Assembly: GCF_044647545.1 (NCBI RefSeq)
Contig: NZ_CP172818.1
DNA length: 64,000 nucleotides
Source: Escherichia coli
Lineage (GTDB): Bacteria; Pseudomonadota; Gammaproteobacteria; Enterobacterales; Enterobacteriaceae
Reading direction: 5' to 3' (one strand)
This document shows positions 12,955 through 61,200 of this stretch, in pieces; position 1 is the stretch's first letter; each line of letters begins with the position of its first letter. A program made the translations under genes and the position numbers. The notes beneath the pieces are model-generated. The model saw only the letters and a program-made list of their open reading frames with translations, ran no database searches and had not been told where the DNA came from.

Positions 12955-12973
12955 TAGATAAATTTCAGGCAAC

Positions 12974-13052
12974 AAAAAACCCACCAACCTTGAACCGAAA
13001 TGGCGGGGTTGATGGGCTCCACAAAATGGGGACATCAAAGAAAAGCAGTGGC
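12974..13052 (-). ncRNA. rybB: sigmaE-dependent small RNA RybB
   Basis: Minus-strand sequence GCCACTGCTTTTCTTTGATGTCCCCATTTTGTGGAGCCCATCAACCCCGCCATTTCGGTTCAAGGTTGGTGGGTTTTTT matches RybB as recalled, with 3' terminator hairpin and U-run; rcdA-ybjL intergenic location. Confidence 0.85.
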
Positions 13053-29226: not shown

Positions 29227-29305
29227 AATCATTTCCTTATTAGCTTGTTCTGAAAAATGGCGTTATACGATAATAGATGATATCCTTTCAATACCATCTT
29301 AAAAG

Positions 29306-29570
29306 CACAAAACAATACTTTATATTATAATAATAAAAATATATACTAATAATTAAAAAAATTAACATATACAACACATAATAAAAAAAAATAATAATTT
29401 AATATAAAAAAATAATTAAAAATTCTAAAAAACTTTAAATAATTTTAATAACAATCAAAATTATTAAATATTAAATCAAAAAAAAAAATTTTTAAAATAA
29501 AAAAAAAACAAATAAAAAAAATAATAATAAAACTATTAAATTATAAAAAAAAACAAATAATATTAAAAAT
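29306..29570. other. Extreme AT block with zero G over ~265 bp; non-enterobacterial composition
   Basis: Counted directly: no G and about 13 C between 29306 and 29570; A/T homopolymers and (aat)n-like tracts. Confidence 0.6.
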
Positions 29571-39893: not shown

Positions 39894-40297
39894 GAAAACC
39901 CAGTCCTTGCAAAGATGAAGTCGAAATGCGCGATGACACACTACTGAAAGCGGAAGGACGAGTAAAGTTGCAATTAAAAGGAAATGTTATGCATCAGGAG
40001 CAGGGGATTTTTATTATGTTGCATTGTTGTGGTCTCTTCCATGTGCATTAAGCCACTGGCGAGGAGCGCAAATCGCCGATCGTTTCCTGTAGGCCGGGGC
40101 AGCCCACATAATGTGGGCTGAGGGCGCGTTTTACAGGGATCAAACTTACCGGTCGCGCGAGAAGTCCAACTTCAGCCCGAGGTTCATGTGGCTTCCTGGC
40201 CTTCGGGAACCGCTTCAGCGTATTGACGCCACCAAGACCCGTGGTTCGGTAACGTCGAAGATAAAACAACCAGGGCAGATAAAGTGCCAATGCTTAA

Positions 40298-40993
40298 TTA
40301 ATTACGTTTTTCCAGTAGAGTCCGGTAAATCAGACCACCGATAATACCGCCGACAATTGGCACCACCCAGAAGAACCACAATTGTTCTAACGCCCAGCCG
40401 CCCTGGAAGATAGCAACCGCGGTGCTGCGCGCCGGGTTAACAGAAGTGTTAGTCACCGGAATACTGATTAAGTGAATCAGGGTTAAGGCCAGACCAATAG
40501 CGATCGGCGCAAAACCTGCCGGAGCGAATTTGTCGGTTGCGCCGTGGATCACCAGCAGGAAACCTGCACTCAATACCAGTTCAACTACCAGCGCGGAAAG
40601 CATGGAATAACCGCCTGGCGAATGCTCGCCATAACCGTTAGAAGCAAAACCGCTGGCTGCCGCGTCAAAACCTGTTTTACCACTGGCAATTAAATACAGC
40701 AGCGCCGCCGCAACAATACCGCCGACAACCTGGGCAATTACGTAGCCAACGACTTCTTTTGCCGGAAAACGTCCGCCAGCCCATAAACCAATAGTGACCG
40801 CCGGGTTAAAATGACCACCAGAAATATGACCAACAGCGAAGGCCATCGTCAGAACGGTCAGACCGAATGCCAGCGCCACGCCGGCAAAACCAATGCCTAA
40901 TTCCGGGAAGCCTGCGGCCAGTACGGCACTACCACAGCCACCAAAAACAAGCCAGAAAGTACCAAAACATTCAGCTGCTAATTTTCTGAACAT
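40298..40993 (-). CDS. aqpZ: Aquaporin Z
   Basis: 231 aa from ATG 40993; two NPA motifs (HFNPAV, SVNPAR). Confidence 0.95.
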
Positions 40994-48179: not shown

Positions 48180-48209
48180 ATGCAGGCATAAAAATTGGGG
48201 GAGGTGCCT

Positions 48210-50486
48210 ATGCTCAATCAAGAACTGGAACTCAGTTTAAATATGGCTTTCGCCAGAGCGCGCGAGCACCGTCATGAGTTTATGACCGTCGAGCACTTGT
48301 TACTGGCGCTGCTCAGTAACCCATCTGCCCGGGAGGCGCTGGAAGCGTGTTCTGTGGATTTGGTTGCGCTCCGTCAGGAACTGGAAGCCTTTATTGAACA
48401 AACCACACCCGTTCTGCCTGCCAGTGAAGAGGAGCGCGACACACAGCCGACGCTGAGTTTTCAGCGTGTACTGCAACGTGCGGTCTTCCATGTCCAGTCC
48501 TCCGGTCGCAATGAGGTTACCGGTGCAAACGTTCTGGTCGCTATCTTTAGCGAACAGGAGTCGCAGGCGGCATATCTGTTGCGTAAACATGAAGTCAGCC
48601 GTCTCGATGTGGTGAACTTTATCTCTCATGGCACGCGTAAAGACGAGCCGACACAGTCTTCTGATCCTGGCAGCCAGCCAAACAGCGAAGAACAAGCTGG
48701 TGGGGAGGAACGTATGGAGAATTTCACGACGAACCTGAATCAGCTTGCGCGCGTGGGCGGAATCGACCCACTGATTGGTCGTGAGAAGGAGCTGGAACGT
48801 GCTATTCAGGTTCTCTGCCGTCGCCGTAAAAACAACCCGCTGCTGGTGGGGGAATCTGGTGTCGGTAAAACCGCGATTGCGGAAGGTCTTGCCTGGCGAA
48901 TTGTTCAGGGCGATGTGCCGGAAGTGATGGCTGACTGTACGATTTACTCTCTCGATATCGGTTCTCTGTTAGCGGGCACAAAATATCGCGGCGACTTTGA
49001 AAAACGTTTTAAAGCGTTGCTCAAGCAGCTGGAGCAGGACACTAACAGCATCCTGTTTATTGATGAGATCCACACCATTATCGGTGCGGGGGCAGCGTCT
49101 GGTGGTCAGGTTGATGCGGCTAACCTAATCAAACCGTTGCTCTCCAGCGGTAAAATTCGCGTAATTGGTTCGACAACCTATCAGGAGTTCAGCAACATTT
49201 TCGAGAAAGACCGTGCTCTGGCGCGTCGCTTCCAGAAAATTGATATTACTGAACCTTCGATCGAAGAAACTGTTCAAATCATCAATGGCCTGAAACCGAA
49301 GTACGAAGCGCACCATGACGTGCGTTATACCGCAAAAGCGGTGCGTGCAGCGGTAGAGCTGGCGGTGAAATACATTAACGATCGTCATCTGCCGGATAAA
49401 GCCATTGACGTTATCGACGAAGCGGGCGCTCGCGCACGCCTGATGCCGGTAAGCAAACGCAAGAAAACCGTTAATGTGGCGGATATTGAGTCTGTGGTGG
49501 CCCGTATTGCGCGCATTCCAGAGAAGAGTGTTTCGCAGAGTGACCGCGATACCCTGAAAAACCTCGGCGATCGCCTGAAAATGCTGGTCTTCGGTCAGGA
49601 TAAAGCCATTGAGGCGCTGACTGAAGCCATTAAGATGGCGCGTGCAGGTTTAGGTCACGAACATAAACCGGTCGGTTCGTTCCTGTTTGCCGGTCCTACC
49701 GGGGTCGGGAAAACAGAGGTGACGGTACAGCTTTCGAAAGCTTTGGGCATTGAGCTTCTGCGCTTTGATATGTCCGAGTATATGGAACGCCATACCGTCA
49801 GCCGTCTGATTGGTGCGCCTCCGGGATACGTTGGTTTTGATCAGGGGGGGCTGCTGACCGATGCGGTAATCAAGCATCCGCACGCGGTACTGCTGCTGGA
49901 CGAAATCGAGAAAGCGCATCCGGACGTGTTCAATATTCTGTTGCAGGTGATGGACAACGGTACGCTGACCGATAACAACGGACGCAAAGCGGACTTCCGT
50001 AACGTGGTATTGGTGATGACCACCAACGCCGGGGTACGAGAAACTGAGCGTAAATCGATTGGTCTTATCCACCAGGATAACAGCACCGATGCGATGGAAG
50101 AGATCAAGAAGATCTTTACACCGGAATTCCGTAACCGTCTCGACAACATTATCTGGTTTGATCATCTGTCAACCGACGTGATCCATCAGGTGGTGGATAA
50201 ATTCATCGTCGAGTTGCAGGTTCAGCTGGATCAGAAAGGTGTTTCTCTGGAAGTGAGCCAGGAAGCGCGTAACTGGCTGGCCGAGAAAGGTTACGACCGG
50301 GCAATGGGCGCTCGTCCGATGGCGCGTGTCATCCAGGACAACCTGAAAAAACCGCTCGCCAACGAACTGCTGTTTGGTTCGCTGGTGGACGGCGGTCAGG
50401 TCACCGTCGCGCTGGATAAAGAGAAAAATGAGCTGACTTACGGATTCCAGAGTGCACAAAAGCACAAGGCGGAAGCAGCGCATTAA
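48210..50486 (+). CDS. clpA: ATP-dependent Clp protease ATPase subunit ClpA
   Basis: 758 aa from ATG 48210 ([19 protein letters not shown]...); two AAA+ modules ([16 protein letters not shown]). Confidence 0.95.
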
Positions 50487-50509: not shown

Positions 50510-50545
50510 AAGTCCGTAATCTCGAAAGAGGTTGCGGACTTTTTA
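50510..50545 (+). terminator. Rho-independent terminator after clpA
   Basis: Stem gtccgtaatctc / gaggttgcggac with gaaa loop followed by ttttt. Confidence 0.65.
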
Positions 50546-50738
50546 TTTATGGGGTGGAACGGTGAAAACCCTATTTTTGGAGGTGAAGGTAAGTTGTTGA
50601 TAATTAGTGCTGCTGGAAAAGGTAAGGATAAAAAAGGGTGACAGCAGGAAAATGAGATGGTTTTGCTTTATTAACAACGGACTAAACGTGTAGTATTTGA
50701 TTCACTCCGACAATAAAAGAAAATCAAAGTTGAAATGG

Positions 50739-50826
50739 GTTCACTGCCGTACAGGCAGCTTAGAAATTCACTGGTAACATACTCCACCCGCCCACCATGT
50801 TCACTGCCGTACAGGCAGATAAAATG
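50739..50826 (+). CRISPR. Vestigial type I-F CRISPR array: 2 repeats (second degenerate at 3' end), 1 spacer of 32 bp; no cas genes nearby
   Basis: Repeat 1 at 50739-50766 GTTCACTGCCGTACAGGCAGCTTAGAAA (the I-F / Ypest-type repeat); spacer 50767-50798; repeat 2 at 50799-50826 GTTCACTGCCGTACAGGCAGataaaatg; AT-rich leader upstream; clpA-infA location is the known I-F CRISPR site in E. coli. Confidence 0.85.
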
Positions 50827-50870: not shown

Positions 50871-50958
50871 TGGCGGTGAGGGGGGGATTCGAACCCCCGA
50901 TACGTTGCCGTATACACACTTTCCAGGCGTGCTCCTTCAGCCACTCGGACACCTCACC
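50871..50958 (-). tRNA. serW: tRNA-Ser (anticodon GGA)
   Basis: Minus-strand 88-nt sequence GGTGAGGTGTCCGAGTGGCTGAAGGAGCACGCCTGGAAAGTG...GGGGTTCGAATCCCCCCCTCACCGCCA with cloverleaf features, long variable arm, 3' CCA. Confidence 0.93.
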
Positions 50959-51211: not shown

Positions 51212-51433
<222 letters not shown>

Positions 51434-58209: not shown

Positions 58210-61200
58210 TTGAGCCAGGAATACACTGAAGACAAAGAAGTCACATTGACAAAGTTAAGTAGCGGCCGCCGCCTTCTGGAGGCGTTGCTGATCCTTATTG
58301 TCCTGTTTGCCGTCTGGTTGATGGCTGCCTTACTAAGCTTTAACCCTTCGGACCCCAGCTGGTCGCAAACGGCCTGGCATGAACCTATCCATAATTTAGG
58401 TGGGATGCCCGGTGCATGGCTGGCAGATACGCTGTTCTTTATTTTTGGCGTGATGGCTTACACCATTCCCGTCATTATTGTCGGCGGTTGTTGGTTTGCC
58501 TGGCGTCATCAGTCCAGCGACGAATACATTGATTATTTTGCCGTTTCGCTACGCATCATTGGCGTTTTGGCGCTCATCCTTACCTCCTGTGGTCTGGCGG
58601 CAATCAACGCTGACGATATCTGGTATTTTGCCTCCGGTGGCGTCATTGGCAGCTTACTGAGCACTACGCTACAACCACTGCTACACAGTAGCGGGGGAAC
58701 TATTGCACTGCTCTGCGTTTGGGCAGCGGGCCTGACGCTGTTCACCGGTTGGTCATGGGTGACCATTGCTGAAAAACTCGGCGGCTGGATTTTAAATATT
58801 CTTACCTTCGCCAGTAATCGTACCCGTCGCGATGATACCTGGGTCGATGAAGATGAGTATGAAGACGACGAAGAATATGAAGAAGATGAAAGTCACGGCA
58901 AACAGCATGAATCACGCCGTGCCCGTATTCTTCGCGGCGCGCTAGCGCGTCGTAAACGGTTGGCGGAAAAATTCATTAATCCGATGGGGCGGCAAACAGA
59001 CGCTGCGTTGTTCTCCGGTAAGCGGATGGATGATGACGAAGAGATTACCTACACTGCACGCGGTGTGGCTGCCGACCCTGACGACGTCCTCTTTTCGGGC
59101 AATCGTGCAACGCAGCCAGAATATGACGAGTACGATCCATTATTAAACGGTGCGCCAATTACCGAACCTGTTGCTGTAGCAGCTGCTGCTACCACGGCGA
59201 CACAAAGCTGGGCTGCACCGGTTGAACCTGTGACTCAGACGCCGCCAGTTGCCTCTGTTGATGTTCCACCTACGCAACCTACAGTAGCCTGGCAGCCTGT
59301 ACCGGGGCCGCAAACAGGAGAACCGGTTATTGCACCTGCACCGGAAGGTTACCCACAGCAGTCACAATATGCGCAGCCTGCAGTGCAATATAATGAGCCG
59401 CTGCAACAACCTGTACAGCCACAGCAGCCGTATTATGCGCCTGCAGCGGAACAGCCTGTGCAACAACCTTACTACGCTCCTGCGCCGGAACAGTCTGCGC
59501 AACAGCCGTATTACGCCCCTGCGCCAGAACAATCGGTGGCAGGTAACGCCTGGCAAGCCGAAGAGCAGCAATCCACTTTTGCTCCACAGTCTACATACCA
59601 GACTGAGCAAACTTATCAGCAGCCAGCCGCTCAGGAGCCGTTGTACCAACAGCCGCAACCCGTTGAACAGCAGCCTGTTGTGGAGCCTGAACCCGTTGTA
59701 GAAGAGACAAAACCCGCGCGTCCGCCGCTTTACTATTTTGAAGAAGTGGAAGAGAAGCGTGCCCGTGAACGTGAACAACTTGCGGCCTGGTATCAACCGA
59801 TTCCTGAACCGGTTAAAGAACCAGAACCGATCAAATCTTCGCTGAAAGCACCTTCTGTTGCAGCAGTACCTCCAGTGGAAGCCGCTGCCGCTGTTTCCCC
59901 TCTGGCATCTGGCGTGAAAAAAGCGACACTGGCGACGGGGGCTGCCGCAACCGTTGCCGCGCCAGTCTTCAGTCTGGCAAATAGCGCTGGACCGCGTCCG
60001 CAGGTCAAAGAGGGGATTGGCCCGCAGTTGCCACGACCGAAACGCATCCGCGTGCCAACTCGTCGTGAACTGGCGTCTTACGGTATTAAGCTGCCCTCAC
60101 AGCGTGCGGCAGAAGAAAAAGCCCGTGAAGCTCAGCGCAATCAGTACGATTCCGGCGATCAGTATAACGATGATGAAATCGATGCGATGCAGCAGGATGA
60201 ACTGGCACGTCAGTTCGCCCAGACACAGCAGCAACGCTATGGCGAACAGTATCAACATGATGTGCCCGTGAACGCAGAAGATGCAGATGCTGCGGCAGAG
60301 GCTGAACTGGCTCGTCAGTTTGCTCAAACTCAACAACAACGTTATTCCGGCGAACAACCTGCTGGGGCGAATCCGTTCACTCTGGATGATTTTGAATTTT
60401 CGCCAATGAAAGCGTTGCTGGATGATGGTCCACACGAACCGCTGTTTACGCCAATTGTTGAACCTGTACAGCAGCCGCAACAACCGAAAGTTGCACCGCA
60501 GCAGCAATATCAGCAGCCGCAACAGCCGGTTGCACCACAGCCGCAATATCAGCAGCCGCAACAGCCGGTTGCGCCGCAGCCGCAGTATCAGCAGCCACAA
60601 CAACCGGTTGCGCCGCAGCCGCAATATCAGCAGCCACAACAGCCAGTTGCGCCGCAGCCGCAGTATCAGCAGCCACAACAGCCAGTTGCGCCACAGCCGC
60701 AGGATACCCTGCTTCATCCGCTGTTGATGCGTAATGGCGACAGCCGTCCGTTGCATAAACCGACGACGCCGCTGCCTTCTCTGGATTTGTTGACGCCGCC
60801 GCCGAGCGAAGTGGAGCCGGTAGATACCTTTGCTCTTGAACAAATGGCGCGTCTGGTGGAAGCGCGTCTGGCTGATTTCCGTATTAAAGCCGATGTCGTC
60901 AATTATTCTCCGGGGCCGGTTATCACTCGCTTTGAATTGAACCTGGCACCGGGCGTAAAAGCGGCGCGTATTTCTAACTTGTCACGTGACCTTGCCCGTT
61001 CACTTTCGACGGTGGCGGTGCGTGTCGTTGAAGTTATTCCTGGCAAACCCTATGTAGGTCTGGAGTTACCGAATAAAAAACGACAAACCGTTTATCTGCG
61101 TGAAGTTTTGGATAACGCCAAATTCCGCGATAATCCGTCGCCATTAACCGTGGTGCTGGGTAAAGATATCGCCGGTGAGCCGGTGGTTGCCGATCTGGCG

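Follow-up and report, generated by a model that had tools for sequence, protein, structure and literature searches.

What is left of a type I-F CRISPR-Cas system at a chromosomal site from which the cas genes are missing, and does the remainder still serve the cell that carries it? The question is raised by a short pair of repeats between clpA and infA in a stretch of Escherichia coli DNA of 64,000 nucleotides, the whole of which is referred to here as the window. The initial annotation had read this pair as a type I-F repeat array with a single 32-bp spacer, a leader and no cas genes, and had called it a decayed vestige.

The clpA-infA locus and its array

Between the clpA stop codon (position 50486) and infA the window contains only the CRISPR array and a gene for tRNA-Ser(GGA). 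An Rfam scan of the entire window added a single further element, the small RNA RybB on the minus strand at 12971-13049 (104 bits). The features of the locus are as follows.

48210-50486, plus strand: clpA, the upstream flanking core gene (open reading frame 48195-50486, stop at 50486)
50510-50541, plus strand: terminator-like intrinsic hairpin of clpA, with a 14-pair stem followed by the T run TTTATTTATG (terminator scan)
50542-50700, plus strand: CRISPR leader, ending in GTAGTATTTGA, aligned over its whole length with the leaders of cas-linked arrays
50701-50738, plus strand: corrupted leader-proximal repeat-spacer unit of 38 nt, a perfect subsequence of the 60-nt unit GTTCACTGCCGTACAGGCAGCTTAGAAA plus GGAACAATCTTGCAAAGGCTGTGAAAGTTGGC
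50739-50766, plus strand: intact type I-F repeat (repeat 1), GTTCACTGCCGTACAGGCAGCTTAGAAA (Rfam CRISPR-DR4, 50.1 bits)
50767-50798, plus strand: 32-nt anti-cas1f spacer, TTCACTGGTAACATACTCCACCCGCCCACCAT, matching cas1f nt 98-129
50799-50826, plus strand: terminal repeat (repeat 2; CRISPR-DR4, 29.7 bits)
50871-50958, minus strand: tRNA-Ser(GGA), which bounds the locus downstream (ARAGORN; Rfam tRNA, 53.8 bits)
51212-51430, minus strand: infA, the downstream flanking core gene (open reading frame and annotation of the collinear records L002, L003 and L004)

The clpA gene is annotated as 2277 nt in the same three collinear records, one of which (L004) is 100% identical to the window across it, and the terminator-like hairpin that follows is kept in all aligned strains.

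The repeats are defined by two copies of GTTCACTGCCGTACAGGCAG, at 50739-50758 and 50799-50818, which lie 60 nt apart from start to start and leave a 32-nt gap after the 28-nt repeat, as had been described. Searched with up to three mismatches allowed, GTTCACTGCCGTACAGGCAG gave two matches in the 64-kb window and none in 100 dinucleotide-preserving shuffles. Repeat 1 aligns with 28 of the 28 positions of the Rfam CRISPR-DR4 model, for which the gathering score is 35, and has a 5-bp stem, CUGCC/GGCAG, with one loop base off the consensus. The 5' handle of a crRNA would come from its 3' end, the 8 nt CTTAGAAA (50759-50766). In the terminal repeat the first 20 nt, comprising the Cas6f hairpin (50799-50818), are intact, and the lower score of 29.7 bits arises because the last 8 nt, ATAAAATG, are degenerate, so that its recognition as a terminal repeat with a decayed 3' end was correct. 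This terminal repeat and its downstream junction are the same in O157:H7, K-12 and strain FDAARGOS_497. In the minimum-free-energy structure of the whole repeat-spacer-repeat RNA (z = -2.1) one repeat is base-paired to the other; the Cas6f hairpin was judged by the Rfam structure alignment, the whole-RNA fold being silent on Cas6f hairpins. A 28-nt CRISPR-DR4 repeat with a Cas6f hairpin, a 32-nt spacer and a 60-nt period together place the array in type I-F, and the 60-nt periodicity recurs in the arrays of E. coli CFSAN064035 (L005), Escherichia whittamii (L009) and strain E69 (L010).

The copy of the array in K-12 MG1655 differs in detail from that in the window. In its terminal repeat (1533-1560 of record L003, corresponding to 50799-50826 of the window) the stem is mutated from GGCAG to GACAG, and position 6 of its spacer is altered as well. 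Cas6f processing may therefore be poorer for the K-12 copy than for the window's.

Upstream of the repeats, the leader has a G+C content of 37%, compared with 51% for the window, and aligns with the CRISPR4.1 leaders of the I-F-positive E. coli strains FDAARGOS_1284 (L001) and CFSAN064035 and with that of E. whittamii, in all of which the first repeat follows directly after GTAGTATTTGA. This homology with the leaders of active arrays supports the proposal that a leader has been retained. The AT-rich, leader-like region had been drawn over 50546-50738, of which the part up to 50700 is homologous leader and the part from 50701 to 50738 is instead the corrupted repeat-spacer unit. A standard consensus scan found no plus-strand promoter in the leader, and a relaxed scan gave weak candidates only, the best conserved being a -10 element, GATAAT, at 50599-50604. 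We infer that the leader contains a promoter, with GATAAT as a weak candidate for part of it.

The position of the array is that of complete I-F systems in other E. coli, as had been claimed. In both FDAARGOS_1284 and CFSAN064035 a complete system occupies the same clpA-infA site, with the order clpA, leader, array, cas1f-cas3f-csy1-csy2-csy3-cas6f, tRNA-Ser, second array and infA; in I-F-positive strains the cas operon thus lies between the array and tRNA-Ser. The intergenic region between cas3f and csy1 in these two strains also contains unannotated repeat-like sequences, CTGCCTGTACGGCAGT and, some 35 nt further on, TTTCTAAGCTGC (7840-7905 in L001, near 8738 in L005), and these fragments may be a Cas6f/Csy-binding or cas-regulating element.

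The adjacent I-F cas genes of a complete system are absent from the locus in the window. The list of open reading frames holds no cas gene from clpA to infA, and a tblastn search of the 64 kb with the six I-F Cas proteins of CFSAN064035 found no I-F cas genes. The sole match, at 50728-50799, proved to be the translation of the spacer itself and was rejected as a hidden cas1f. Because the search was negative across the 64 kb and no cas open reading frame lies between clpA and infA, the array, a genuine I-F array, is orphan at least within the window, and the earlier reading of a cas-less type I-F repeat array stands.

The 38 nucleotides upstream of the first repeat

The leader in the window is separated from the first intact repeat by 38 nt (50701-50738), compared with zero bases in O157:H7 and K-12. 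All 38 bases can be aligned in order with the 60-nt unit (longest common subsequence 38/38), whereas 2000 shuffles averaged 28.9 and never exceeded 34. Relative to the unit of FDAARGOS_497, 22 bases have been deleted in roughly twelve blocks, every remaining base being unchanged, and this stretch is the sole difference between FDAARGOS_497 and the window over positions 40300-60466. The distance from the clpA stop to tRNA-Ser is accordingly 384 bp in the window and 406 bp in FDAARGOS_497, which has three repeats; an array of two repeats would give 346 bp. The intact 60-nt unit is found in 89 genomes, namely FDAARGOS_497 and 88 others, which are phylogroup-F/ST648-like. Its spacer, GGAACAATCTTGCAAAGGCTGTGAAAGTTGGC, matches cas3f, at 31 of 32 positions with a CC PAM in CFSAN064035 and at 29 of 32 with TC in FDAARGOS_1284. 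No CRISPR-DR4 match was detected within 50701-50738 at E≤1. The single spacer of the initial annotation is exact as to its sequence (50767-50798), but these 38 nt are what is left of another unit, directed against cas3; however they arose, they are not leader, and the array is one intact spacer plus the wreck of another.

We consider that the corruption of this second unit is probably a consensus error of the assembly, because such a pattern is foreign to ordinary mutation but can result when a consensus goes wrong across tandem repeats or in a mixed culture. The alternative, that the stretch is a genuine chromosomal lesion in a decayed leader-proximal unit, has some points in its favour: the source strain lies outside the 5426 complete E. 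coli genomes searched, private alleles are to be expected, the first 13.5 kb of the window are only 99.0% identical to the best record, and the sequence alone gives no proof of error. Such a lesion would nevertheless have to have lost 22 bases from a dozen or so separate places within 60 nt, with zero substitutions, while the surrounding 20 kb stayed otherwise the same as in FDAARGOS_497. The pattern is that of a consensus spanning tandem repeats, or of one built from a culture in which only some cells have lost the 60-bp unit. The 38-nt version was found in none of the 5426 complete genomes (0/5426), and it has no exact match among metagenome contigs. We therefore think a real lesion unlikely, and the garbled remnant is a probable sequence-quality flag to be heeded before spacers are counted for typing.

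Outside the region around the array, the comparison with FDAARGOS_497 brought out several other differences. Collinearity ends at exactly 12958, where, beside ybjL, FDAARGOS_497 has a P2-like prophage (with tail genes and ogr) that is absent from the window; the site looks like a prophage integration hotspot. At 29247-29566 the window is missing about 2.5 kb relative to FDAARGOS_497, which has a pentapeptide-repeat pseudogene there. The lysO-aqpZ intergenic region contains a divergent patch (40013-40300), and the ftsK linker repeats (60466-60702) vary in number and sequence.

The spacer and its target in cas1f

A search of the spacer against phages, plasmids and E. coli chromosomes led to cas1f rather than to the phage or plasmid source that had been suggested. 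No match was found among 50,697 phage records, and plasmid matches were at chance level only (E of 3 or more), one of them being a distant Vitreoscilla cas1f; a phage or plasmid origin was rejected on these grounds. The protospacer corresponds to nt 98-129 of cas1f, within codons 33-43. The spacer represents the antisense strand of the gene, and a crRNA made from it would pair with the coding strand. On the spacer-identical strand, 5'-CC precedes the protospacer in every allele examined (L001, L005, L006, L009 and L010), which is the PAM of type I-F systems (GG on the other strand, i.e. CC/GG; PMC3506596).

The alleles differ in how closely they match. The B2-type allele (FDAARGOS_1284) agrees with the spacer at 31 of 32 positions, with a mismatch at spacer position 4, and the B1-type allele (CFSAN064035 and L006) at 30 of 32, with mismatches at positions 4 and 10; both are synonymous third-codon positions. 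A degenerate-codon pattern with A fixed at position 4, scanned over one genome per species, found two cas1f genes, in strain E69 (CP089930.1) and in E. whittamii. The E. whittamii gene matches at 31/32 with a CC PAM. That of E69 matches at 32/32, likewise with CC; it encodes a Cas1f with 95% identity to that of FDAARGOS_1284 and a score of 543 bits against TIGR03637 (cas1_YPEST), and adjoins a 35-repeat array. Because the E69 gene combines a full match with the CC PAM, the spacer is, on sequence grounds, fully matched and PAM-competent as a guide to one or more of the I-F systems found in nature.

Both the locus and the spacer are widespread. The intergenic region from clpA to tRNA-Ser is matched in 5421 of the 5426 complete E. 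coli genomes. The spacer is present with up to two mismatches in 2578 of them and exactly in 545, including O157:H7, K-12 being one base different. Most of these matches are the same orphan array, and a subset lies inside genes annotated as cas1f, a gene present in 241 of the 5426. The arrays of FDAARGOS_1284 and CFSAN064035 are free of the anti-cas1 spacer, and the sole match in these strains is cas1f itself. The 32-mer occurs at 2582 places in the 2578 records, meaning that a few genomes hold two copies; these could carry both the spacer and cas1f (self-targeting) or a duplicated locus.

Origin and present role of the orphan array

The array is very probably one that is already known, the orphan type I-F array of E. 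coli published as CRISPR4.1-2 or "CRISPR3 anti-CRISPR". Touchon and Rocha (2010) named it CRISPR3, found in its spacers 1 and 2 matches to Cas1 and Cas3 of the Ypest (I-F) subtype, noted that all E. coli lacking Ypest cas genes have at least one such spacer, and proposed an "anti-CRISPR" role, with three arguments that selection is at work (PMC2886076). Almendros et al. (2014) gave the single cas-less array of the CRISPR-III locus the name CRISPR4.1-2 (PMC3903273). Like it, the array in the window lies in the clpA-infA interval next to tRNA-Ser, without I-F cas genes at the site, and has a 28-nt repeat and a modified terminal repeat. The leader-distal spacer of CRISPR4.1-2 likewise matches cas1, here at 30 to 32 of 32 positions depending on the allele, and the next spacer, seen in close relatives of the window, matches cas3. 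The spacer of the O157:H7 array is identical to the window's at 32/32. The two arrays are of the same kind, and they differ in that the anti-cas3 unit, intact in the closest genomes, is the 38-nt garbled remnant in the window.

Two other kinds of E. coli array invite comparison. Complete I-F systems of B2 and B1 strains (LF82, UTI89 and DSM 30083; L001 and L005) share the site, the repeat, the 60-nt period and a homologous leader, but in the loci examined they have cas1f-cas3f-csy1-csy2-csy3-cas6f and two arrays of 4 to 21 repeats, which lack an anti-cas spacer; the tail of the terminal repeat is TATTCACA in FDAARGOS_1284 as against ATAAAATG in the window. The two-repeat I-E remnant of LF82 (PMC3506596) resembles the window's array in being a minimal cas-less array at a former CRISPR-Cas site. 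I-E remnant arrays differ in having a 29-nt I-E repeat and lying at the iap-cysH locus, and an anti-cas spacer is not reported for them in the E. coli CRISPR literature covered.

The window's array keeps exactly the parts predicted to be needed for one mature crRNA, namely an 8-nt handle, a spacer and a Cas6f hairpin. Cas6f (Csy4) cleaves at the 3' base of the repeat stem, and because of this position of the cut the product is predicted as follows.

50759-50818, plus strand: predicted mature crRNA of 60 nt (8-nt handle, 32-nt spacer and 20-nt hairpin), from the sequence and the Cas6f site

The leader would drive a short pre-crRNA, which would be inert in a resident cell without I-F Cas proteins. 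Should an I-F cas operon enter the cell, its own Cas6f would cut both repeats and release one 60-nt crRNA, made up of the handle CUUAGAAA (50759-50766), the 32-nt spacer and the hairpin (50799-50818). Loaded with this crRNA, the incoming Csy complex would pair with the coding strand of cas1f beside the CC PAM and recruit Cas2/3; the incoming element would be destroyed and the uptake of new spacers primed, such that a complete I-F system could not establish itself. The degenerate 8 nt at the end of the terminal repeat could decay at no cost, since no further crRNA follows for which they would supply the handle.

The I-F system is constitutive (PMC3506596). Expression, interference and priming by native orphan arrays have been reported: in two reviews (PMC5972030, PMC8616872), Almendros et al. 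(2016) are cited as finding that native orphan arrays are constitutively expressed and that, when I-F cas genes are supplied on plasmids, the arrays guide the incoming Cas proteins against them, with interference and primed adaptation against the cas plasmids as the outcome. We infer that the window's own copy is also expressed and active. The lack of a good consensus promoter in its leader counts against this, the first intact repeat lies 38 nt from the leader, which could impair primed spacer integration, and the mismatch at position 4 with the common E. coli cas1f alleles falls inside the I-F seed and should weaken direct interference.

An account that dispenses with any present function is that the array is a passive scar of autoimmunity, in which self-targeting spacers against cas1 and cas3 selected for loss of the cas operon and the mini-array simply persisted, a view of Diez-Villasenor (2010) that PMC2886076 discusses. 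The array lies exactly at the site of the cas operon of I-F-positive strains, with its terminal repeat abutting the tRNA-Ser terminator; its spacers match cas genes with proper PAMs, as genuine I-F adaptation would give; and the stem mutation in the K-12 terminal repeat, with the further spacer change, suggests some drift. On the other side, distant phylogroups have an identical junction and terminal repeat, which implies one old event followed by long retention, and some 2,300 genomes without cas genes have kept the spacer with no more than two changes, even though a unit between repeats is readily lost. The three arguments for selection (PMC2886076) and the experimental interference by native orphan arrays that the reviews report (PMC5972030, PMC8616872) also weigh against a passive scar, and we judge it to be an improbable description of the array as a whole. 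It may well explain how the array arose, but neither the conservation nor the interference that has been reported agrees with it as a description of what the array does now. The two readings are compatible, and the array may be a scar in origin and a guard in its present function. Of the initial description as a decayed vestige, a cas-less array with a degenerate terminal repeat at the I-F site is what is found, but mere decay is not borne out, given the intergenic matches in 5421 of 5426 genomes, the cas1f target with its PAM, and the activity reported for such orphan arrays (PMC2886076, PMC5972030, PMC8616872).

The differences among cas1f alleles allow a further reading. Seed position 4 of the spacer is mismatched in every cas1f examined from I-F-positive E. 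coli, of B2 or B1 type, and in the B1 type position 10 is mismatched too; the perfect allele with a CC PAM occurs only in a divergent lineage, that of E69, with E. whittamii one mismatch away. The synonymous changes might be escape mutations in an ongoing arms race between the anti-cas spacer and the I-F cas genes, in which case the I-F systems found in E. coli today would be the ones able to slip partly past the resident guard, and the original donor or target would be represented by the E69-type allele. We hold this to be quite doubtful; it is weakened because the reviews report interference, though they do not state which cas allele was used.

That the repeats are a chance palindrome or spurious pair and not CRISPR at all, which the initial annotation had itself named as a way in which its reading might fail, has practically no likelihood, for although there are two copies only and the repeat core is a short palindrome, the shuffles gave no match against the two observed, the full-length CRISPR-DR4 match lies above the gathering score, the 60-nt period, 32-nt spacer and leader are laid out as in arrays of up to 35-40 repeats in CFSAN064035, E. 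whittamii and E69, and the spacer has a PAM-flanked protospacer.

The array is a textbook case of a CRISPR array working against the acquisition of CRISPR-Cas, whose targets and role were published between 2010 and 2016. To this the present analysis adds that the window's copy carries a 38-nt garbled remnant of its second unit, and that a natural cas1f allele, that of E69, is matched perfectly by the exact spacer with the correct PAM.
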